From an uncultured Holophagales bacterium (GTDB taxonomy: Bacteria > Acidobacteriota > Thermoanaerobaculia > Multivoradales > UBA5704), in contig CAWJGT010000009.1 of NCBI GenBank assembly GCA_963842525.1, forward strand, positions 704,001-768,000: DNA of 64,000 nt, written 5' to 3'. Positions 23,041 through 64,000 of the stretch are shown here, one piece after another. Position 1 is the stretch's first letter. Every line of letters starts with the position of its first letter. The position numbers and the translations under genes were made by a program. The notes under the pieces were generated by a model, which was not told the origin of the DNA, ran no database searches, and worked only from the letters and a program-made list of their open reading frames with translations.

Positions 23041-24111
23041 TCCCCTATGGCTCCCCATCGCCCCGTCTGCGCTGGACGCAAACGGCCCGTCGCGAAGCTC
23101 AGGCTACCGCGGGGATGCCCCTCCCGCCCACGGCTCTCTGGTTAGCTTCCATGACGACGGCAAACCTTCCGCGCCACCACCCGCGTCCCGGAGCTCATTG
23201 AAGGCGGGCTCTTACGGTCTGTTGACATAAGAGATATGCCCCGCGCCAGGCACCCTGGCTGGGATGACCACGCCACCCGACCACCTCTCGCCGCCCAGCT
23301 CCAGGCCGGCGATGCAGCTCCCGGTTTCGCTTCCCGAAAGGTTGCCCGACTCCCGCAGCCTGAGAGGGGAGGGCGCCACCCGCTCACCTGCGCGAGCGTC
23401 CCATCCCGCCGCGGTGGTGGCAACCTTGCCGCCATCCACCCGCGTCCTCGGAACTCCCTCGAAGGCGCGCACCTCGCTCTCCCTCGCCCCCATCCACCGC
23501 CGCGCTTCGCGCGGGATGATGCTGCCGACCCATGGTCCAAATTTCTACGGATTCAGGTGATCGGCAACTCACACCATCACTCCGCGCGCCAGGGCGATAG
23601 CAGCGCCACCACCTCGCCCTCTCGTCGGCCAACTCCCGTGGTGATGGCAGGCGCAGCAGGTTTCATAGTTATTCGACCGCGGTCGCCGCGGAGATGGCAG
23701 CGTCCATCCCCGTGCGCCAAGCAGGCGCCGTAGGGACGACTACCCCCCCGCCACCCCTTCGCCGGCCAGCTCCCGCGCCGATGGGCAGCGCCCCACCCCC
23801 ATCCCGCAGCTCAGGTGCGCCTCTTGTATGTTGACGAAAAGACATTGCCACCCGCGCTCCGGAGCTGCTCGCGAAGTCCCACCAGCCCGCTGACGCACAC
23901 GCCCCCCGCGCGCCAGGCAGCAGCCGCCGCGGCGATGACCACGCCCCCCGTCCGCCTCTCACCGGCCAGCTCCCGCGTCGTTTCCGGAAACGATATCCGG
24001 CTCCCGCAGCCCCAGGCGGGGACGGCGGCGCCCCGCCGACCACCCGGGCGAGGTCGATCCGCCGCGGCGACGGCAACGTCCCCGCCACCCACCCGCGTCC
24101 TCGGAGCTCCC

Positions 24112-53164: not shown

Positions 53165-54119
53165 ATGAGAATGCAGCGCATCCTGTTTCCCCTCGGTGCC
53201 GCGGTGCTCTTCGCCGTGGCGGGGTGGGGAGGCGCCGCGCAACGGCAGCCCGGACCGGCCCAGCAACCACCCGCCCCCCCGGCGGCCAGCGCCTCGGCGG
53301 CCTACGTAGGCAGCGACGTCTGTACGGCCTGCCACGGCGAGGTCGCCGACCACCTGGCGAAGACCCCGCACGGCAAGGGCGGCTTCGCCCGCCTTTCCAA
53401 CCTGGGCTGCGAGACCTGCCACGGCCCGGGAGCGCGCACGCGGAAGACCCGGACAACCCGGCTCTCCATCCCCGAGTGGACAAGCTGAGCGTCGAGCGGC
53501 AGTCCGCGGTCTGCCAGAGCTGCCACGGCGGCGCCAGCCAGTTCCTCTGGCACGGCAGCGCGCACGAGCGGCGCAACCTCTCCTGCGTGAGCTGCCACAG
53601 CATCCATTCCTTCAAGTCGGAGAACGCGCAGCTCAAGACGGCGAGCACCCCGAGTCGTGCCTGTCCTGCCACAAGGACGTGCGCGCGGAAATGTGGAAGA
53701 ACTCGCATCACCCTATCCGCGAGGGCAAGATGGCGTGCGCCGACTGCCACAACCCGCACGGCACCCAGACCCCGAAGCTGATCAAGGCCGCGTCGGTCAA
53801 CGACCAGTGCTACACCTGCCACGCCGAGAAGCGCGGCCCGTTCCTGTGGGAGCACCCGCCGGTGCGGGAAAACTGCATGAACTGCCACACGCCGCACGGG
53901 TCGAACCACATCAAGCTGCAGAAGACCTCGGTGCCCTACATCTGCCAGCAGTGCCACGCCAACACCCGCCACCCGGGCACGCTCTACGACGCCTTCCGCG
54001 CGCCGACGCTCGAAAATCCGGCGACCGGCAGCAACCGGCTGTTCAACCGCGCCTGCCTGGATTGCCACGCGGCGGTCCACGGCTCCAACCACCCGTCGAG
54101 CCCGTACCTCGCGCACTAG
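53165..54119 (+). CDS. DmsE/MtrA-family decaheme cytochrome c (two frameshifts)
   Basis: Ten CXXCH across frames (CTACH, CETCH, CQSCH, CVSCH, CLSCH, CADCH, CYTCH, CMNCH, CQQCH, CLDCH); EKRGPFLWEH.PV, HGSNHPS. Confidence 0.9.
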
Positions 54120-54128
54120 GAGGATGCC

Positions 54129-56496
54129 ATGAGCACGATTCCGCAGAGCTCTGGCTCGTCGCGTCGTCGCCGCCGTGCTCCTCCTCGCGGGCCTGCCGCT
54201 CGCGGCGCAGGAGACGGAGGCGGAAACCGAGCCACGCTGCCGGGACGGAAACGCAGGCCGAAGCCGCGACGGAGGCCGAATCCGCGACCGAACTGAAGAG
54301 GCGACCGAGCCAAGGCTTCACCTTCCGGGTCGACCCGCTGGTCCTCCAGGTCCTGGAGACCGACGTCGACACCGAGTCGTCCAAGTTCGAGGAGTACCGT
54401 GATCTCGACAGCGGCTTCCGCCCCTCGCTCCATCTGTTCGGCGAGGGCGGCGACCGCACGCTCGATATCCGCGCCGACGCGATCGGCCGCGACGACGCCC
54501 GCTATACCCTCGACTACGGCGTATCCGGCCGGTACGGGCTCCTCTTCGATTTCAACAAGATCCCGCACCGCTTCGGCAACAACGGCCACATGCTGTGGAC
54601 GCGGACCGGCGCCGGCCGGCTCGAGATCGCCGACCCCGTCCAGGCCGCCATCGAAGGGGCCGTGGCACAGCAGTTCGCCACCAACCGGACCGGGGTGAAT
54701 TTCGCCTTCCTCAACGGCCTGCTCGCCCCATACCTGGCCACCGCCACCGAGGTCGACCTCGGCCTGATCCGCGACCGGACGCTCGTCCGGCTCGACCTGG
54801 GCCGCATGGCGCGGCTGGGCTGGAGCCTCGAATACAGCCACGAGAACCGCAAGGGCGACCGACCCTTCGGCGGCAGCTTCGGGTTCAACAACGTCACCGA
54901 GATCCCCGAGCCGATCGATTACAAGACCGACGCGGCCGAGCTGGCCGGCGAATGGAACACCCGGCAGGCCGGGCTGCGCTTCGGCTACCGCTACTCGACC
55001 TTCAAGAACGACATCAGCACACTGATCTGGGACAATCCGTTCCGGATCAATCCCTCGACCGATGCGAACGCCTATCAGTCACCCAGCTCGTCGTCCATCA
55101 ACGGCTCGAGCCTCGGCTTCGCCGACCTGGCGCCCGACAACGAGTCGAGCCTGCTCTTCCTGACCGGCCGCGCCCGGTTCGGGGGCGACTGGTTCGCCAA
55201 TGGCAGCGTGTCCTACAACGTCATGACGCAGGACGAGCCGCTGCTGCCCTACACGTTCAATCCGGCGATCGTCGGCATCGCCGAGACCGGCGCTGCGTTC
55301 GACCCGACCGAATCGCCAACCTTCCGGCCCGCAACGCCGACAACAAGGTCGACGTCTTCAACATCAGCGCGCAGACAGGCACCCGGTTCGGCGAGAGCCT
55401 GGGACTGACCTTCCGCTACCGCCTCTACGATTACGACAACAAGTCGCAGCGGATCGAGGTCCCCGGCTATGTGCGCTTCCATGCGGTCTGGGAAGAGATC
55501 CCGCGCATCACGGTCCCCTACGCCTACACGGTGCAGGACCTGGGAGCCGAGTTGGGCTGGGACTTCGTGCGCAACAGCCGCCTCGCCCTCTCCTACACCC
55601 TTCAGACCTGGGACCGCGAATTCCGCGAGGTGGAAAGCTCGGACGAGGACATCCTCAAGCTGAGCTTCGACAGCCGGCCGTTCGCCTGGCTCAACCTGCG
55701 AGCGAGCTACGAGATGGGCGACCGGTCGATCGACGGCTACGACCCGGAGGCCCAGGAGGCCAGCTTCGTCGATCCCGCAGGGGTCAGCAACCTGCCGGCG
55801 CTGCGCAAGTACGAGCAGGCCGCCCGCAAGTACGATCAGCTCAACGTCCAGGCCCAACTCGCGGGACAGGCCTGGAACCTCACCTTCGGAGTCACCGGGC
55901 GCGACGAGGACTACGACGAGAGCGCCTTCGGCCTGATCTCCGACGAGGTCCTGCAATACAACTTCGAGGTCGGCTACACGCCCGGAGACAACCTCAACTT
56001 CTACGTCTTCGGCCATCGCGCCGACCGCGACGTCTTCCAGCGCGCCCGCCAGTCCGGCGCGACCCCTTCGAACAACCCGCTGGACGACTGGACGGCGGAT
56101 TTCGACGAAAAGACCGACACCTGGGGCCTGGGCTTCACGTCCCGCTTCGCCGAGAAGTGGACGACCGACATTTCCGGCCGCTGGTCGAAATCGGACGGCT
56201 TCGCGGACTTCACCGCCTTCCCCGGCGGCCTGCCGCTGTCCGGCCGCCCTGTCCAGCAGGCCCTCGACTTCGACAACTACGAGGACATCGAGCTCCTCAG
56301 CCTGCTCGGCCGGCTGGACTACCGGATCACCGACCAGGCCTCGGCGGGGGTCTTCTACCGCTACGAGGACTACACCATCGACAGCTTCATCCTGCAGGGC
56401 CTGACCAACTACCTGCCAGGCGCGCTGCTGCTCAACCCCGAGCAGGGGGACTACCAGGCCAACATCTTCGGCCTGGAGCTGAAGCTGGCCTTCTGA
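54129..56496 (+). CDS. MtrB/PioB-family outer-membrane beta-barrel (frameshifted)
   Basis: SKFEEYRD, EIPEPIDY, LIWDNPF, LAPDN, aromatic beta-strands, terminal LKLAF; follows the decaheme gene. Confidence 0.88.
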
Positions 56497-56849
56497 AGAT
56501 TCGGGCCTACCGTCTGTACTCTCCCCCACCTGCTGACGGAAAGCCGGCTCTGGGCCGTGCCTGAGCCGGTCTTTTCGGGCCAGCGAGGCCCGCTCACTCC
56601 AGCCGGCACCTCCGCCGTCCTCTCTTGCTGTCCTTGAGGTCCTGTTCGTCCGTGCCGTCCGTGTTCGTCCCTTCTCCCTCCCTCGTGGACTGGCGCCTCC
56701 CTCGCGCGCGAAAGGCTTTATCTTTCTCTCTGAGACTGCCTATTCAGTATCAGATTGAGAATGAGTAGACGCGCGCACGCGCGCGTGGACCGTGTCCGCG
56801 ACCGTCCAGCAACCGCTCCCCGAACCCTTCCCGCAACCGCCAAGGGTGC

Positions 56850-57011
56850 GAAATGAAGAAATCATTTCTTCGTTTCCCTTCATGCACTGATCCCGGATCT
56901 CCTGCAAATTGAGCGGTTTACGCCCAAATCGCACTCGCGCTCACTTTGAGGTCTTGCGCCCCTCGATACAACCTGCTCTCCGACCAAGGAGGGAGCACGC
57001 ATGCCGACCCC
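56850..57011 (+). repeat. Palindrome + conserved leader cassette, copy 0 (upstream of rep)
   Basis: GAAATGAAGAAAT-c-ATTTCTTCGTTTC, then ggtttacg..tttgaggtcttgcgcccctcga..caacctgctctccgac..ggagggagc..ATGCCGACC. Confidence 0.8.
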
Positions 57012-58054
57012 AGCAAGCTTCTACCGCCAAGTGGACGTTCACCTCCACGGTGACACCAAATTCCTTGCCCTCACTCCGGAAACTCCGTCTGGACGTGGAC
57101 TCTTCAAGCACCTCCTCATCTGCCCGGAGCTGGGGCCGCTTCCAGGAGTGATCCGCTCCGGCGCCGCCGCCATGGCGGAAGTCCTGGAGTGGCCCCCGGA
57201 TTCGTTCCTGGAGCGGTTCGAGGAACTGATCCGGGAACACCTGGTCGAGGTCGACTGGAAAGCCCGGCTGATCTTCCTCACCAACGGCATCCGCTACAAC
57301 GCGCCGGACAATCCCAACCAGGTCATCGGCTGGGCACGCCACTGGAATGCCCTGCCCGACTCCTCCCTCAAGAGCGTTATCTGGGCGAGCTACCTCGCTC
57401 ACTTCAAGAGCGACGCCGAGAGACGGCGCAAAGAGATCCAGGCTGGGACGAGAGACCAACGGCAAGACCCGGAGGCCCTCCTCAAAGCCTTCCTCGAAAA
57501 CATCGCCAAGCCGGGAGCTGCCCTGCCGGAAGGTGAGATGGAATCGATACCGGCTCCCGCGCCGGTGCCTGCACCCGCAGCCGGCCCGCGGCCGGTGGCG
57601 CCCCCGCCGAAGACTCGCTGGGACGCCGCGCCGCTCCCGGGGGAGTCTCTGCTCGACACCCTGGCGCAGGAGCTTCAAGCCGCCCACCCGCCCGGGCTTG
57701 CCGGGGGAACAGACCTCCAGCACGCGCTCCTCCAAGCGCTGAAGACCGGCGAGCCTCCGCGCCGACGGCACCGCCGCACGACCAGGAATCCAAAGCCTCA
57801 CCCTGTCCGAGCTTCGCGAGCGCCATACCGCTTGGTGCGCTGCCTGGGAGGCTGGAGCCAGCCTCCCCATGAACCTCGCCAACTGGATCAACAAGCGACG
57901 GTGCTGGCGCGAGCAGCCGCCGGAGCCCCGCCCCGATCGCACCGGGGCCCGAGCCCCGAACGACCCACCCAGCGGAGCGGCTGAAAAGCTCCAGCAAATC
58001 GTCGATCTCGAGGAAGAGAGCCTGAGGACCATCAAGTGGAGGAGTCACTCATGA
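57001..58054 (+). CDS. Phage-type replication initiator / replisome organiser (frameshifted 3' half)
   Basis: wHTH-like N-terminus, LIFLTNGIRYNAPDNPNQVIGW, PAPAPVPAPA linker; last frame ends in an ATGA overlap with the DnaC-like gene. Confidence 0.65.
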
Positions 58055-58845
58055 ACAGCCTCGCGACCGTCTGGACCGATCTCCAGCGGAAACTGGCTGC
58101 CAACCCCGCAGACTGGCCCGTCTACGTCTGCCCTGGCGGGCACGAGATCGCCCTCCCTCCCTTCTCACGGCTCTGGGACAAAGAGACCGGCCGCCTGACC
58201 GCCCGTCCCGAGTGCCTGGACTGCGAGAAGACGAGGATGGCTTTCCAGCGGTCTCAGCGCCGTCTCCTCGCCGACCGCGAGTCCGCCCTGCTCTCTCACG
58301 GCGTCCCCGCCCGCCTCGCCGGCCAGCCGTTCGTAGGAGGCATGCCCCACGTCCTCGGCCATGACCTGGCCGCCTGGACCGGTGGCCCGGCCACCTGGGC
58401 CGTCGTCCTCCACGGCGTGGAAGACGCCGGCAAGAGCATGCTCGCCGCGCAGCTCCTGTGGCTGCGGCTGCCCCATATCCGAACTGCTGCATGGTGGCGG
58501 GCCGCCCACCTCCTCGATGCGCTCCTTGGCTCCTTCGGCGAAGAGACCCGGGTCCGCGCCCACCAGGAGAGCACCGCGGACCTCCTCGTCATCGACGACC
58601 TCGGCCATGTCCTGGGCGACCGCGGGCTCGACGTTCTGTACAACCTCGTCACAGCACGCCAGGAGCAAGTCCGCGCCACCATCCTCACCCTCGACGAGTC
58701 CCTCGTTGCGTTCTGCAAGCGGCACTGGAGCCTCGGATCGAAACTGACACGCGACACCCTCCCGGTGCCCTTCGCCCAAACCTACGCAGAAAGGACGAGG
58801 CAGGAAGGCTCAAGAGCCGGCAAGCCGGCAAAGGCCGGGCAGTGA
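58051..58845 (+). CDS. DnaC/IstB-like AAA+ ATPase (helicase loader)
   Basis: Zn pairs CPGGH..CLDC, GVPAR, Walker A GVEDAGKS, Walker B LLVIDDLG. Confidence 0.8.
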   Translation: MNSLATVWTDLQRKLAANPADWPVYVCPGGHEIALPPFSRLWDKETGRLTARPECLDCEKTRMAFQRSQRRLLADRESALLSHGVPARLAGQPFVGGMPHVLGHDLAAWTGGPATWAVVLHGVEDAGKSMLAAQLLWLRLPHIRTAAWWRAAHLLDALLGSFGEETRVRAHQESTADLLVIDDLGHVLGDRGLDVLYNLVTARQEQVRATILTLDESLVAFCKRHWSLGSKLTRDTLPVPFAQTYAERTRQEGSRAGKPAKAGQ

Positions 58846-59762
58846 AGCTGCTGATCTCTGAGCCGGTGGAAAGCATCCCGCTGCCGAAATTGTCGAGATT
58901 ATTCTCGACAATCTGGCGGTCCGTTGAGTCGTCGATCTCCTTTAAAACTGCAGGTTTACGTCGTATCTCGCCTTCCTCGCGATTTGGAGGTCTTGCGCTC
59001 CTCGAAGGAATCTGCTCTCCGACAGAGGGAGGAGCCGAGATGCCGAACCCATCGACCTGGAACCCATGGGGCTGCGCCACATCGCCGCCTTTCGGGCCTC
59101 CGGAGGACCAAAGTGTAAGGTTCAACCTTACACTTTTTTCTGCCCCCGAACCGTTCATCTCCTTTGGGTTGTGTGGCTTACGCCGGATCTTGCCCCACTC
59201 CCGATTTGGAGGTCTTGCGCTCCTCGAAGCAACCTGCTTTCCGACAGAGGGAGGAGCCAAGATGACGAACCGATCACCCTGGAACCCACAAGCACCGGTG
59301 GCCCGTTCAACCTTCCCACACCCAGCCCGGCGGGGTAAGAGGGAAGAGGGGAGCGGCTCCCGCCCTACACCCGTTTCGGCCGGGGCAGCTAGCGCCGCAC
59401 ACACGCCTTGTTCGGGCGGCCATGCGACCCGCAGAGGCACAGGCACCGTCCGATGCGCCGGAACCTCTCGTGCCTTCCCTGAGGGATCTCAGGGCCACCA
59501 CGCCGCGCGGCAAGCCTGGCCTGAGGCCCTGAAGTGGAGCCTGCGGCCGACAAAGGACCAGATTATCTGGTCCTTGCCTCTTATACCGCGAGCGAGCCTA
59601 TCTCCCGTGGATTGTGCGACTTACCTCCTCCCACGGCACTCCTGCCGATTTGGTGCTCTTGAGCTCCTGGAGACAACCTCCTTTCCGAACAAAGGAGGAG
59701 CCAAGATGCCCAACCCGTCACCACAGAAGCGACTGGCCAAGGCCGGAAAGGAGCGGTCCTGA
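58842..59762 (+). CDS. Possible ORF reading in frame through all three cassettes
   Basis: GTGA overlap with the DnaC stop, TGATG overlap with the next gene, no stops; composition is not convincingly protein-like. Confidence 0.3.
   Translation: MKLLISEPVESIPLPKLSRLFSTIWRSVESSISFKTAGLRRISPSSRFGGLALLEGICSPTEGGAEMPNPSTWNPWGCATSPPFGPPEDQSVRFNLTLFSAPEPFISFGLCGLRRILPHSRFGGLALLEATCFPTEGGAKMTNRSPWNPQAPVARSTFPHPARRGKREEGSGSRPTPVSAGAASAAHTPCSGGHATRRGTGTVRCAGTSRAFPEGSQGHHAARQAWPEALKWSLRPTKDQIIWSLPLIPRASLSPVDCATYLLPRHSCRFGALELLETTSFPNKGGAKMPNPSPQKRLAKAGKERS
58889..59730 (+). repeat. Palindrome + conserved leader cassettes, copies 1-3
   Basis: Leader CGATTTGGAGGTCTTGCGCTCCTCGAAG..CTGCT.TCCGACAGAGGGAGGAGCC.AGATG with ATGs at 59040, 59262, 59706; palindromes at 58889-58912, 59110-59136, 59553-59575. 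Confidence 0.88.
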
Positions 59763-60161
59763 TGCGTCTCGATCCCAAGCACGCCCACGAGCCTTCCCCG
59801 TGTCGATCCCGGCCGCGTCCGCTCTGGCAGGGCCGTGGGGCTGCGCGACGGTGCCCTCCTCGCCCTCGTCGCGGCGGGCCTGAGCGCCACCGAGATCGCA
59901 GCCCTCCAGGCCTCAGCCATCACCATGGCCGACAGCAAGCTCGTCCTCGCAGTCCATCGCCACGGCATCACCTGGTCCGCCCCTCTGCCCACTGACCTCG
60001 GAGCCCGGCTGCTCGTTTGGCTAACAGAAAACCGGCTCTGGGCCGTCCCTGAGCCTGTGTTCCGAGGCCAGCGAGGCCCCCTCACCCCGGTGGGCATCTG
60101 CGCCGTTCTCAAGCGCTACCACAACCACCAGCCAGCGCCGGCGCGCAGGAAACGCAAGTGA
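59762..60161 (+). pseudogene. Truncated tyrosine-recombinase-like protein
   Basis: GLRDGALLAL..GLSATEIAAL box I-like, P.F.G.RG.LT; no HxxR or catalytic Tyr; frameshift near 59815. Confidence 0.55.
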
Positions 60162-61064
60162 GAGTCGCGACCTACGCCCGCACCTCGGCCGCCGACCTCG
60201 GCCGAGTCACCGTCGAGCGGACCCTCGCCGGCTTGGCTGACCACGCGGCCCGGAGCGGCTGGGAAGTCGTCCTGGAGTGCGCCGATCAGGGACCCTGGCT
60301 CGAAGGCCGGAGAGAAGGCCTCCAGCGTCTGATCGCCGCCGTGCGAGTGAACGCCGTGCAAGGCATTCTGGTCCACTCCCTCGGCCAGCTCGCGCGCTCC
60401 CTGCGCCACCTGACCGAGCTGGGCCAGCTCCTCGATCGCCAGGGCGTCGCCCTGATAGCCATCGAAGACCACATCGACACCACCGACCCGGGCGGCCTGA
60501 TCCGCTGGCTGGCTCGATCCCTCCGTCCGCCTGGACCGCCACATCCGCTCCGAAGGAGCCAGGCTCGCCCGCCTGCGGGCTTCTGGCGAGCCCTGGGGCC
60601 ACCCCATGGCGGCCGTGAGCCCGAAAGAGCTGCTGGCCTGCTGGGAAGGCCGGAGAGGCCGCCGTCCCCTGTCCCTACGCGCTATCGCCGCCAGATTCGG
60701 CGTCTCAGAAGCCACCATCCGCAAGCGCCTCCGCGAGCTCCGCACCGCCGGTAAAGTCAACGACGAAGCCCGGTCTCGCGCCCTCGCCTCCTGGGGCGGT
60801 CTCCGCAAGGGCGGCCGGCCGCCAGATCCCCTCGACGACGACGCCCTCACCGCTGAGTGGGCAGTACAGCACCAAGCCGCCCGCCTGCGAGGCCACGAGC
60901 CGAGCCTCGCCGCCATCGCCCGCCACCTCCACGTCGAGCCGCAGCCGCGTCCGCGCAAGGCTCCAAGAGCTCGGCCTGCTCCCACAGAGCCCTGGGTACA
61001 CATCCCCGAGGACCAGAGCGGCCAGGGCCACCAGCCAAAACAAGCTCATAGGGAAAACCGATGA
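60158..61064 (+). CDS. Serine recombinase (resolvase domain + HTH), frameshift near 60510
   Basis: MRVATYARTS, REGLQRL, SLGQLARSLRHL, IDTT.P.G; second frame SLRAIAARFGVSEATIRKRL. Confidence 0.75.
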
Positions 61065-61312
61065 AAAACGACAGCAGACCGCAGCAGTCACCACCGAGTC
61101 GGCACACGTTGTCCAACGTTGGTGAGGTGCTCCCCCGGTTCATGACCTGGCCCGAGGTGATCAGTTGGTCAAGCCTGTCCCGGTCCACGTTGCGACGGGA
61201 AATCGCGGCCGGCCGGTTCCCCGCCCCGGAGACTCTCAGCCCTGGAAGGGAAGCCTTTCGCGTGGACAAGCTCCGCGAATGGCAAGAAGGCCGGCGCGAC
61301 TGGGCCGCCTAG
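61061..61312 (+). CDS. AlpA-family regulator / excisionase
   Basis: RFMTWPEV..SLSRSTLRREIAAGRFPAP..LS....AF....LREW. Confidence 0.85.
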   Translation: MKNDSRPQQSPPSRHTLSNVGEVLPRFMTWPEVISWSSLSRSTLRREIAAGRFPAPETLSPGREAFRVDKLREWQEGRRDWAA

Positions 61313-62609
61313 GCCTGAGAAGGCACCACGCCGGCCGGCTCGCCGAAGAAGATGCTCCGTAGATGGGCGTCCCAACGCAGCCCGGCCGTCCATTTCTCGG
61401 CGTCGTAGTCATAAAGGTTGTAGTGAATCGTTTCGATGGTCCCATCAGTGTGGTTGACCAGACGTCGCCGGACCTCCTGCAGCACGCCAAGCCGAGCCAA
61501 GGAAGTCAGGAACGTCGTCCGCAGGTTGCGAGCCACGAAGGGGAAGCCCACCTTGGCCGACACCTGGGAACAGAACGCCGTGATGCTCTCGGCGTGGAGG
61601 TGATGGTCCTGCAGCCGATCGCTGGGGAAGACATACGGCAGCCCGGCACTCAACCTCTCGACGCGCGGCAGCACATACTCGCTCCACAGCGGCAGCAGCG
61701 GCACCCGGTGATCCCGTCCCGTCTTCGTGTACCGCCGCCGCCCAATGTAGCCCGGCAGGTTCCACCACTGAGCCTCCAGATCCTGGCGGCGCATGCCGAC
61801 GGTTTCGGTGGTGCGCTGGCCCAGCAGGAGGCGCGTCAGCACCACCAAAGCGAACAGATCCCGGGTCGTAGTGAACTGGCCGTTGTGCAGCTCCGCCTGT
61901 TTGTCGGGCACCGGCTGGTCGGCGATCTCCAGGAGGGCAAACCACAGCGCCCGGAGCTGGTCATCGGAGAGGCTCCTGCGTTCCGGAGGCGCGGCCGGCT
62001 TGGGGTAGGGGAAGCGCCGGACCGGGTTGTACTCGACGAGCTCGCGCCCTTCGGCCCAGGTGAAGATGGCCGAGATCACAAACAGCAGGCCGCGAGCGCT
62101 GACGGCGTGCCCGCCGGTGACGAGCCGGTCGATGACCAGATGGAGATGGCGCTTGCGCACCTCGCCAGCGGGCATCTGGCCGATGACGGGAATCACATCC
62201 TTGCGGACCCGCCGCTGGACGTCGTACCAGGTCGCGAGATGATCGCGAGCGTGGCGCTCCATGTAGAGCTCGAAGAGCCCGCGAAGGTCATCGGGTGTTC
62301 CTCGGGAGCCTCGGGAGGAGCCATCCGAAGCTTCTTCGGGTCCCGCCCCGAGCTGGCGGCGTTAAGATCCTGTCGAGTCTCCTCGCGGGCCTGAGCGAGG
62401 GAGACGCGGGGGAAGGGTCCGATGGTCCGGCGATCCTGCTTGTCCTGGCCCTTGACCCTGTAGACGACGGAGAAGGAGCCATGCCCCTTGTCGCTCTTGC
62501 GGAAGCGAAGCCCCGGGACCACCGTGTCACTCCATTCCTGCCTTTCCTTGCCATCGGGAACGCGGAGACCGCGCAGGGTGCGATCCTCAAATTTGATGTT
62601 GTAGCTCAT
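61309..62609 (-). CDS. Tyrosine integrase with arm-DNA-binding domain (frameshift near 62280)
   Basis: SDTVVPGLRFR..IGPFPRVSLAQARE (arm domain); GQRTTE, TKTGRDHRVPL, RNLRTT, VNH, HYN. Confidence 0.9.
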
Positions 62610-62762
62610 GGGCGTAAGTATAGCATAACTGGGTCACGCCCGGGTCACACAGCTCCGCGCTTACTGGCGAAAAGTGGTCACGATTGGCACCGCCTGGAGC
62701 GTCTTCCCCTCGGGGAAGGCCCGGATGAGATCACATGAACACCGATGACCTAATTAACCGGG

Positions 62763-63443
62763 TCATCCCCCCTCTCCCGGTCGGGGGGAGGGCGATGGGA
62801 GAGGGGGACAGGGGGTGAGGAACGTCTCCCGCCACCCGCGCGTCGCCGCCAGCAGCTCCAGGGCGCGGTCGAGTCGCGTCTGGTTCTCCGGCTTGACCAG
62901 CCAGGTGCTGCGGCCCGAGGGGTGCGGCAGGGAGATGACTTCGAATTCGATCTCCTCCCGGGCGACCCGGAAGACCTGGCCGACCCGCTCGTGGAGCGGC
63001 GCGGGCTCGGGGAGGAACTTGGCGATGGCGAGTAGGCCCACGGCGATCACGGTGAGCGGCCGGATCAGGCGGATCTCCTCCTCCAGCCAGGGAGCACAGT
63101 TGGCGATCTCCAGCGGAGCGGGCGGACGGTCGCCTCCCTGGGGAGCCCGGCCGGGGAAGCAGCGGATCACCGCCGCCATCCAGACCCGGCGCCGGAACTC
63201 CTCCTCCGAAGCACCCAGCCGCGCGAACCAGGAGAAGAGGCGCGTCCCGGCCGTGAAGGCGAAGGGTATCCCCAGGTCACGCTCCCGCGGCCCGGGGGCC
63301 TGCCCGACCAGCATCATCCGCGGCCAAACTTCGGGCCGGACGATCACCGGCGGCGGCTCGACGGTCGGGCAGATCCGGCACCCCCGCACCTGGGCGATGT
63401 AGCGGTCCAGGGCAGGCCAGTCGAAATGTCCGGATTGCGTCAC
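62763..63443 (-). CDS. Uracil-DNA glycosylase superfamily protein
   Basis: CRICP, MLVGQAPG, F...AG.RL, RCFPG, LPHPSG. Confidence 0.9.
   Translation of the reverse strand: MTQSGHFDWPALDRYIAQVRGCRICPTVEPPPVIVRPEVWPRMMLVGQAPGPRERDLGIPFAFTAGTRLFSWFARLGASEEEFRRRVWMAAVIRCFPGRAPQGGDRPPAPLEIANCAPWLEEEIRLIRPLTVIAVGLLAIAKFLPEPAPLHERVGQVFRVAREEIEFEVISLPHPSGRSTWLVKPENQTRLDRALELLAATRGWRETFLTPCPPLPSPSPRPGEGG
62766..62820 (-). repeat. BoxC/REP-like element forming the 3' end of the UDG ORF
   Basis: Reverse strand cctcaccccctgtccccctctcccatc..gggagagggggg; encodes TPCPPLPSPSPRPGEGG-stop. Confidence 0.75.
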
Positions 63444-63479
63444 GCGGCGGATTGTACCTGCGCACCCGCGCCAGGGGAT

Positions 63480-64000
63480 TCAACCCCAGGCAGCCGGACG
63501 CTTGAACACGCCTGACTTCTTGTGCCAGGGACGCTCGGCCAGGAGGAGCAGGAAGGTGTCGACCACCAAGGGATCGAACTGGTGGCCCCGCTCCTTGCGC
63601 AGGACCCCGGTCGCCTGCTCCACGGACAGAGCCCGGCGATAGGAGCGGTCGGTGGTCATGGCGTCAAAGGCGTCGACCACGGAGACGATCCGCGCTCCGA
63701 GGGGGATGCTCTCGCCGCTCAGCCCGCCGGGATAGCCGGGATAGGTCCCGTCCAGCTTGCCGTCGTACCGCTCCTGGTGGTGGCGGACGATCGGGGCGGC
63801 ATCGCGCAGGAGCTCGAGCCGCTCCAGGATCCGCGCGCCGATCTCGGGGTGCCGCTGCATGATCTCGGCCTGCACCGGATCGAGCGGCCCCTTCTTGCGC
63901 AGGATCTCCTCGGGGACGCCGATCTTCCCGATGTCATGGAGCAGGCTCGCATAGTGGAGCATCTCGAGGTCGCGGCCGCGCAACCCCAATCGCGTGCCCA
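63480..64000 (-). CDS. HD-GYP phosphodiesterase domain protein (5' part outside window)
   Basis: LLHDIGKIG, HHQERYDG..GYP, DAFDAMT, QFDP. Confidence 0.92.
   Translation of the reverse strand, partial: GTRLGLRGRDLEMLHYASLLHDIGKIGVPEEILRKKGPLDPVQAEIMQRHPEIGARILERLELLRDAAPIVRHHQERYDGKLDGTYPGYPGGLSGESIPLGARIVSVVDAFDAMTTDRSYRRALSVEQATGVLRKERGHQFDPLVVDTFLLLLAERPWHKKSGVFKRPAAWG

Follow-up and report, generated by a model that had tools for sequence, protein, structure and literature searches.

Mobile-element modules of an uncultured Holophagales bacterium pair a promoter-like gene start with a hypervariable palindrome at a fixed upstream position

We analyzed a stretch of 64,000 nucleotides (the window) from an uncultured Holophagales bacterium of the phylum Acidobacteriota (GenBank assembly GCA_963842525.1, contig CAWJGT010000009.1, positions 704,001 to 768,000), whose genome is 9.95 Mb in 34 contigs and 96% complete. 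Below, C with a number denotes a contig of this genome, the window being C9:704001-768000, and L with a number denotes a locus from metagenome-assembled genomes (MAGs) or metagenomes. A mobile element in the window contains four copies of a module of about 140 bp, in which a palindrome lies upstream of a conserved block of about 110 bp that ends in a Shine-Dalgarno (SD) sequence and ATG-CCG. The feature is real, statistically strong, and reproducible. Of the explanations weighed below, we favor, with somewhat less than even confidence, a promoter cassette whose upstream dyad operator is type specific and recognized by a dimeric protein provided in trans. The modules of the window are as follows.

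56850 to 56876, no strand: palindrome 1, GAAATGAAGAAAT-C-ATTTCTTCGTTTC, with one T.G mismatch and a perfect core of 8+1+8, centered 138 bp before ATG 57001.
56897 to 57003, + strand: conserved unit 1, with ATCTCC (56897-56902), TTTACG (56917-56922), a -35-like TTGAGG (56946-56951), CTTGCGCCC (56953-56961), a -10-like CAACCT (56969-56974), the SD sequence (56988-56995), and ATG 57001.
58889 to 58912, no strand: palindrome 2, ATTGTCGAGA-TTAT-TCTCGACAAT, a type that recurs in the C25 element of the same genome.
58935 to 59042, + strand: conserved unit 2, with ATCTCC (58935-58940), TTTACG (58955-58960), TTGGAG (58984-58989), CTTGCGCTC (58992-59000), GAATCT (59008-59013), and ATG 59040.
59110 to 59136, no strand: palindrome 3, AAAGTGTAAGGTT-C-AACCTTACACTTT, unique in its own genome.
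59157 to 59264, + strand: conserved unit 3, with ATCTCC (59157-59162), CTTACG (59177-59182), TTGGAG (59206-59211), CTTGCGCTC (59214-59222), CAACCT (59230-59235), and ATG 59262.
59553 to 59575, no strand: palindrome 4, AAGGACCAGAT-T-ATCTGGTCCTT, with an identical core in the C4 element.
59600 to 59708, + strand: conserved unit 4, with ATCTCC (59600-59605), CTTACC (59620-59625), TTGGTG (59650-59655), CTTGAGCTC (59658-59666), CAACCT (59674-59679), and ATG 59706.

An earlier, sequence-only reading of this DNA had described four leaders, each with a palindrome at a fixed offset. We confirmed all four copies and their ATGs (repeat family D1, spaced by 2,039, 222, and 444 bp), and every palindrome is centered 138 to 142 bp upstream of its ATG. 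Behind unit 2 there is just a stub open reading frame (ORF) reaching into unit 3. The C25 and C4 loci share a conserved version of the ORF of unit 3 (MTNRSPWNPQ...). An independent metagenome contig of 8,254 nt, about 92% identical, is collinear with positions 56657 to 60151 of the window and supports the copies, so that assembly error in this genome does not account for the layout.

A profile built from the four window leaders found 17 copies in the genome (E ≤ 0.013), 15 of which have a perfect palindrome with arms of at least 7 bp centered 138 to 142 bp before the ATG or its equivalent. A strict leader pattern then recovered 17 loci in ten MAGs labeled Thermoanaerobaculia, Holophagales, Acidobacteriota, or Acidobacteriaceae, together with 36 metagenome contigs from soil or rhizosphere. 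The 17-copy profile, run on these 53 loci, returned 79 leaders, which brings the family to 96 copies. Homologous leaders elsewhere, in MAG and metagenome loci alike, carry the palindrome at the same offset. Perfect arms of at least 7 bp centered 134 to 146 bp before the ATG were present in 72 of the 96 copies, versus 335 of 20,000 random positions of the genome scored in the same way (1.7%). The earlier proposal that symmetry and position are kept while the sequence varies is thus borne out. The strict pattern matched nothing in viral contigs and none of 400 sampled genomes of the phylum, although its strictness means that absence is not shown. A limited literature search found no description of such a module.

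We examined the conserved block in 77 nonredundant copies. Its elements follow one order: A.CTCC, T.G.ATTG, TTAC, about 20 variable bases, TTTGGAGG, CTTGCGCTC, CAACCTGC, the SD sequence, and ATG-CCG. The palindrome center lies 55 to 57 bp from TTAC in all 70 measured copies (56 bp in 52 of them) and 89 to 94 bp from CTTGC in 72 of 72, being 92 bp before the invariant CTTGCGCTC. The pattern TTGnnn, 17 or 18 bp, and nAAnnT fits 86 of the 96 copies. The second hexamer is CAACCT in 53 copies, CAATCT in 21, and CAAGCT in 9, and it ends 22 to 28 nt before the ATG. The bases of greatest importance in a -10 element are A at position 2 and T at position 6. Because both are kept, the block looks like a weak sigma-70-type promoter that would start transcription about 20 nt before the ATG.

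Searches for RNA structure in the leader gave little. RNAalifold predicted no pairs for 51 leader sequences, and the 24 copies examined that precede a small-terminase gene (terminase-type copies) folded with a mean z of +0.3 relative to shuffled sequences. A hairpin sequestering the SD sequence, seen by eye in the other copies, was rejected, as it was no more stable than shuffles (mean z of -0.7 in 27 copies). Rfam gave only a subthreshold sul1 match elsewhere in window positions 54000 to 64000, and only a subthreshold microRNA-hairpin match, on the palindrome, in L029 6000 to 7600.

The sequence-only reading had called the palindrome arms unrelated. We found instead that they are variants on one frame: the site is a 27-bp dyad, AAAnTGT-N13-ACAnTTT. 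When 51 distinct odd-centered palindromes were aligned, G stood at -8 in 46, C at +8 in 47, and T at -7 in 34; positions -13 to -10 are A-rich, -9 is T, -6 is A or C, -5 is C, and the right side mirrors the left. We then measured complementarity by distance from the center (d) in 57 odd-centered dyads chosen for at least 8 of 10 complementary pairs at d = 3 to 12. It was 0.91 to 1.00 at d = 3 to 10, where positions are conditioned by that selection, 0.68 at d = 1 and 0.74 at d = 2 (chance, 0.46 and 0.38), and 0.58 at d = 13 (chance, 0.36). Mismatches at d = 3 to 12 comprised 9 G.T, 9 A.C, and 21 others, with no enrichment of wobble pairs. Because symmetry is present at positions that cannot pair in a hairpin and wobble pairs are not enriched, the constraint would seem to act on duplex DNA and not on an RNA stem. 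Moreover, identical arms can enclose different central 5-bp segments (TGGATCG with ATCAT or TCCGG; likewise TGTCCAA-N5 and GTGCCA-N5), and one-base asymmetric forms persist in four loci. Shared arms with swapped centers and asymmetric forms are the behavior of half-sites of a dimeric protein.

These observations bear on the suggestion that the palindromes are recognized by structure, as a cruciform or single-stranded DNA hairpin for nicking, packaging, or priming whose sequence drifts while template-switch correction matches the arms. The arms are indeed perfect, the center and flanks are A/T rich, turnover is very fast relative to the flanking genes, and the central 5 bp are less symmetric, as a loop would be; the mismatch spectrum resembles that of unselected new mutations, and the center base shows a strand bias. 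However, the symmetry at nonpairing positions and the identical half-sites with different centers weaken the cruciform or nick-site idea, the TGT and ACA at fixed positions are sequence specific, and the asymmetric variants persist. Drift would also not yield identical cores of 19 to 24 bp in unrelated flanks and different genomes. Arms of 8 to 14 bp are short for cruciform extrusion in vivo. We therefore regard a structural reader as unlikely.

We consider it very improbable that the palindromes act as RNA hairpins, namely, as bidirectional intrinsic terminators or insulators that an AlpA-type antiterminator, loaded at the conserved block, might read through. Consistent with this idea, the left flank is A-rich and the right flank T-rich, six T's follow palindrome 3, and palindromes in arrays lie within about 35 to 45 nt of the preceding stub ORF. 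The invariant element in the promoter spacer also recalls a Q-binding element. However, a scan of positions 56700 to 59900 for intrinsic terminators gave three terminator-like sites, none of which is one of the four window palindromes, so that these are not ordinary intrinsic terminators. Among the four, only palindrome 3 has a T-run, and many palindromes of the family have none (for example, in C8 and at C9:1237848). The absence of G.U enrichment and the symmetry reaching ±1 and ±2 speak against RNA pairing as well, and there would be nothing to terminate in the 33 copies whose palindrome lies between divergent genes.

We asked how the palindromes are distributed. We defined the type of a palindrome by its 7 nt at d = 3 to 9. 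There were 37 types in 80 copies, and 8 of them occur in at least two unrelated gene contexts with dissimilar flanks. The 19- to 24-bp core of palindrome 4 recurs before the terminase genes of two islands of the same genome (C9:30928 and C20:133702) in dissimilar flanks, and at least two site types of the window array also stand before terminase genes of phage-head islands. Palindrome 3 is identical at 30 of 30 positions in a separate contig of an independent metagenome, within the flanks of an integrase-adjacent module. Because cores of about 20 bp are identical in otherwise dissimilar flanks, the comparison argues for sequence-specific recognition and not free drift. Since types recur in unrelated gene contexts, the reader is most likely a sequence-specific dimeric protein rather than a factor acting on a hairpin or terminator.

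Then, we compared the turnover of the palindrome with that of its neighbors. Two head islands of the genome are collinear over about 19 kb at 81 to 90% identity; the alignment is interrupted in the 100 bp surrounding the palindrome and in three further short segments, among them a low-complexity linker inside the large terminase. (In the large terminases of the islands this acidic linker, at about residues 400 to 460, carries variable insertions such as GEGPGVR repeats, while the proteins are otherwise about 90% identical.) Across 25 loci, integrases that are 92 to 95% identical, with few, scattered, and conservative differences, and small terminases that are up to 98% identical lie beside unrelated palindromes; arm identity correlates at only 0.28 with integrase identity and 0.12 with terminase identity. 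In the 8,254-nt contig, window positions 59065 to 59201 are replaced by 206 other bases and positions 59497 to 59640 by 99 other bases, and these segments hold palindromes 3 and 4. By these alignments, the palindrome segment is a hypervariable island. We rejected the idea that the reader is encoded next door, as none of the neighboring proteins (integrase, small and large terminases, and replication protein) covaries with the palindrome. The neighbors stay 92 to 98% identical while the palindrome changes completely; therefore, the reader would act in trans.

Another explanation is that the palindromes are recombination core sites, with arms of about 11 bp and a spacer of 5 to 7 bp, at which the adjacent Xer-like integrase or the serine recombinase of the element would cross over, the modules being cassettes exchanged between elements. 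Such a geometry resembles simple tyrosine-recombinase sites (dif and lox), and the TGTCC half-sites recall the resolvase half-site, TGTCYNNTA. In terminase-type loci and in those with an O-like gene, a divergent Xer-like integrase gene begins within about 20 bp of the palindrome; the same palindrome occurs in different contexts, and it is exactly the palindrome segments that were replaced in the close relative. However, nearly identical integrases sit beside unrelated palindromes, and one recombinase could not read the three or four different sites of an array. Crossover would also have no need of the strict 56-bp spacing to the promoter blocks. No second copy flanks the islands: in the genome we found no palindrome or core outside modules (allowing up to 3 mismatches over the full palindrome or up to 2 over a 19-nt core) and no partner or att-like copy. 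We judge crossover sites to be improbable.

We cataloged the downstream genes of the 96 copies. Thirty-three precede a small-terminase gene, 9 an upstream ORF (uORF) followed by a small recombinase-like gene, and only 3 a replication gene, and the arrays head a recombinase operon. Thus, the sequence-only view of a collection of replication-control modules does not hold. Roles as operator decoys or in incompatibility or immunity memory, which that view included, are hypothetical. In the genome itself, modules precede the gene for a DnaD-like replication protein (in the window), a 224-amino-acid protein with a weak C-terminal helix-turn-helix (HTH) (C25 and C4), the MTNRSPWNPQ ORF, and the uORF with a 133-amino-acid gene. 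At four further loci they precede a protein of 218 to 230 amino acids, then a large terminase, a Mu-like portal, a protease, and a Mu gpT-like head protein. Because the large terminase and head genes follow, this protein is presumably the small terminase. The palindromes of the 33 terminase-type copies are each flanked by divergent genes, which is where operators are typically placed.

On the reverse strand of most terminase-type copies, an open frame extends from a conserved ATG (MSARPQI...), located 38 nt before the leader ATG, across the palindrome and on into the integrase. Several Xer-like integrase copies lack a canonical start near the conserved W. We rejected antisense coding there: entropy was flat across codon positions (15.4, 16.4, and 16.9), and stops or frameshifts interrupt 9 of 27 copies.

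Modules also occur in tandem, with at least two within 1 kb of each other at 14 loci. Five of these loci carry runs of four or five modules, spaced by 156 to 299 bp, with stubs of about 10 codons between them and each palindrome following the preceding stub ORF within about 35 to 45 nt. Such arrays are found repeatedly ahead of the small recombinase-like gene. The layout of the window is seen again in L083 (module, replication gene, loader-like gene, three modules, small recombinase-like gene). Related arrays are collinear, differing from one another by entire units.

The replication genes raise another explanation, that the palindromes are single iterons for O-like or DnaD-like initiators, that each module thus serves as an entry site resembling an origin, and that an array lets the initiators of several elements replicate the small element. 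Prophages of the genome have O-like winged-helix genes followed by runs of dyad iterons of similar geometry, CCAGTTTT-N7-AAAACTGG, which are probably prophage replication origins (C18:7651-7810 and C3:378916-379070). The genome encodes four prophage O-like winged-helix proteins, at C18:7386, C3:379334, C1:558039, and C27:1131. The half-site family TGTCC[TG]G is found in each of the five modules that precede an O-like winged-helix gene, and the window element encodes both DnaD-like and DnaC-like proteins. Against this, each module has a single palindrome and no run of identical iterons, and the 33 terminase-type modules lie in islands without replication genes. In addition, the window, L083, and L081 have unrelated palindromes, although their replication proteins are closely related as judged by similar N-terminal sequences. 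We find initiator sites quite unlikely as an explanation. Dyads of the same geometry, TGTCCTT-N5-AAGGACA, were also seen outside modules, upstream of AAA-type ATPase genes (GMRRSGKTYF) at C21:54646 and C3:831527.

We propose the following mechanism for the operator-controlled promoter cassette. Each copy would be a self-contained gene-start module of a mobile-element lineage. Its promoter would consist of a -35 element, TTGGAG, a spacer of 17 to 18 bp that holds CTTGCGCTC, and a -10 element, CAACCT, with transcription starting about 20 nt before the ATG. A homodimeric, type-specific DNA-binding protein provided in trans would bind the palindrome, which lies about 120 bp upstream of this putative start, and would switch the module promoter. 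At loci where the palindrome adjoins an integrase gene, it would switch that divergent gene as well. The conserved blocks would be read by conserved factors, namely, RNA polymerase and possibly an AlpA-like protein. In the window, one module would drive the replication genes, and three stacked modules with three site types would head an operon of the small recombinase, resolvase, and AlpA genes. Because three different site types are stacked ahead of it, several different trans-factors could each control this recombinase operon. Proteins that read such dyads exist in the genome, as O-like winged-helix genes are followed by iterons of similar geometry, and the position of the palindrome between divergent genes supports an operator.

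Several observations weigh against this model. A simple scan of positions 56700 to 59900 for the sigma-70 consensus returned no site, and the hexamers are far from consensus. For a classical activator, about 120 bp from the inferred start is a long way. We found no reader protein, and the genome contained no match to the Mor/C (PF08765) or Ogr/Delta (PF04606) activator families, the latter searched at E ≤ 0.01. Nine of the 12 palindrome types in the genome are single copy, and no core lies outside modules; it is therefore unlikely that the genome encodes a cognate factor for every type. A symmetric dimer leaves the strand bias of the center unexplained (on the sense strand, C in 34 of 51 and G in 2). 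Finally, 24 of the 96 copies lack a good palindrome, and a nonpalindromic version is conserved in four loci (L035, L041, L044, and L060).

The nonpalindromic upstream segment, found in four terminase-type loci of different genomes and also at the second module of L036 and L063, contains AGATTTCAG[AG]AT. It is similar to the segment before some uORF-type modules and may be a different binding site.

An extension of the operator model, which we think rather unlikely, is that the arrays are banks of heterospecific sensors. A satellite-like element would copy the operators of several phage-head islands or helper phages, so that any one of several unlinked trans-factors could fire its recombination and excision operon, as in an OR gate. 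The rapid but symmetric turnover of the palindromes would then reflect an arms race or the avoidance of cross talk between coresident elements.

The closest working analogy to the modules is the late promoters of P2 and P4. There, the same type of site is found in helper and satellite, and one activator fires both. Both systems place a partly conserved TGT...ACA dyad upstream of several operon promoters. The P2/P4 site is given as a TGT-N12-ACA dyad bound by the Ogr/Delta activators and the promoters as Ogr dependent (PMC3931495). Unlike these, the modules have N13, about 37 discrete types rather than one, and different types stacked in tandem; the site is about 120 bp from the inferred start rather than 55 bp, and the genome has no Ogr/Delta zinc-finger protein. 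The Mor- and C-dependent promoters of Mu are a second comparison, but no Mor/C activator is present in the genome, although the island portal and major head proteins are Mu-like. Lambdoid operators and O iterons are dyads of about 17 to 19 bp whose sequence differs between related phages while the architecture is fixed, and their readers are dimeric HTH or winged-helix proteins. However, in lambdoid phages the reader gene is linked and covaries, and sites come in runs of one type, whereas here there is no linked covariation, one site per module, and arrays of mixed type.

In integrons, the cassettes lack promoters and carry at their 3' end an attC site, a long and imperfect palindrome that has extrahelical bases and conserved core sites. 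Like attC arrays, the modules carry a variable, structurally constrained palindrome once per unit, and a tyrosine recombinase gene is adjacent in many loci. Unlike attC sites, the palindromes are perfect, are 17 to 29 bp long, and lie 140 bp upstream of an SD-ATG leader, and most array units are geneless. The integrases are Phage_integrase/Xer-like and P4-type rather than IntI; the attC core-site consensus was not formally searched. Tightly regulated late promoters upstream of terS with dedicated activators, such as RinA of staphylococcal phages, control the whole packaging and morphogenesis operon (PMC3152322). Like these, the module lies directly upstream of the small-terminase gene; unlike these, it has a hypervariable operator and in small elements stands before replication and recombination genes too. 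The modules would be best filed among operator-controlled mobile-element promoters.

The element that carries the window modules spans about 56500 to 62700. Its order is a 91-nt recombinase-like remnant, module 1 with the DnaD-like and DnaC-like genes, modules 2 to 4, the uORF and small recombinase-like gene, the resolvase, AlpA, and the P4-type integrase. Its other features are as follows.

56532 to 56622, + strand: a 91-nt repeat of the 3' part of the small recombinase-like gene, upstream of unit 1 and 80% identical to 60020-60110.
57001 to 57984, + strand: replication protein with a weak DnaD-like match (PHROGs phrog_25711, E = 3.5e-8 and 2e-4); no Pfam match.
58051 to 58845, + strand: DnaC-like, helicase-loader-like protein, a weak match (PHROGs phrog_3277 and phrog_50, E about 2e-5).
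59706 to 59762, + strand: uORF of 18 codons, MPNPSPQKRLAKAGKERS, whose stop overlaps the next ATG.
59762 to 60161, + strand: small recombinase-like gene (MRLDP..., 133 amino acids when intact), frameshifted between the ATG-59762 frame and the 59835-60161 frame.
60158 to 61064, + strand: serine recombinase (resolvase), split into a catalytic N-terminal ORF (60158-60754) and an HTH ORF (60606-61064); Pfam PF00239 at E = 1.5e-15 plus HTH families.
61061 to 61312, + strand: AlpA-like excisionase or regulator (PHROGs phrog_66, E = 1.1e-8; Pfam PF05930 below the cutoff).
61309 to 62609, - strand: P4-type tyrosine integrase, split into an arm-binding part (62193-62609) and a core and catalytic part (61309-62262); Pfam PF13356, PF22022, and PF00589.

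Frameshifts in the window break three genes, those for the small recombinase-like protein, the resolvase, and the P4-type integrase. Because these three genes are intact in the C25 or C4 copies (the small recombinase-like gene in both, the integrase as 431 amino acids in C25), the window copy looks like a decaying member of an element family. The small recombinase-like protein, whose arrangement with the uORF accounts for 9 family copies, has no Pfam match; an atlas search leads to short tyrosine-recombinase-like proteins, and its paralogs after DnaB-like genes have no module upstream. In a tblastn search with the intact C25 protein, residues 88 to 118 match 56532 to 56622. The two copies of the 91-nt repeat thus flank the segment that holds the replication genes and the array. 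A low-depth metagenome contig of 218 nt joins 60022 to 56543, which is ambiguous among a 3.5-kb circle, a tandem form, and a gene of a relative. Outside the element, at 24012 to 24095 on the - strand, ARAGORN called a tRNA-like gene (tRNA-???) with an undetermined anticodon and a two-base anticodon loop.

The phage-head islands of about 19 kb (C9:13400-31900, including L029 and beyond, and C1:567000-592000) comprise an Xer-like integrase gene and about 15 genes in one orientation, for head and probably tail proteins. Recognizable replication, lysis, or regulator genes are absent from them, and one genome has at least four or five paralogous copies. Their layout resembles that of a gene-transfer agent or capsid-forming satellite. 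Just past the integrase end of one island, C9:32559-34376 (- strand; L029 8559-10376) encodes a 605-amino-acid protein with an N-terminal TIR-like motif, YDVFLSHASQDK.

What is unusual here is a hypervariable yet type-structured dyad at a fixed position, in tandem arrays that mix types, some of them shared with phage-head islands. If the operator model is true, the modules would represent a compact, modular form of control of mobile elements in a little-studied soil phylum, in which a conserved promoter cassette carries an exchangeable 27-bp specificity tag. The shared half-site types would give a map of cross talk between elements, from small replicative or integrative elements to phage-head islands, and the family would offer about 37 natural orthogonal operator variants on one scaffold. 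The sensing of different helpers by a satellite would become directly testable. Even with a structural reader, a perfect palindrome that is hypervariable at a fixed position and outpaces its neighboring genes would be an unusual evolutionary object.

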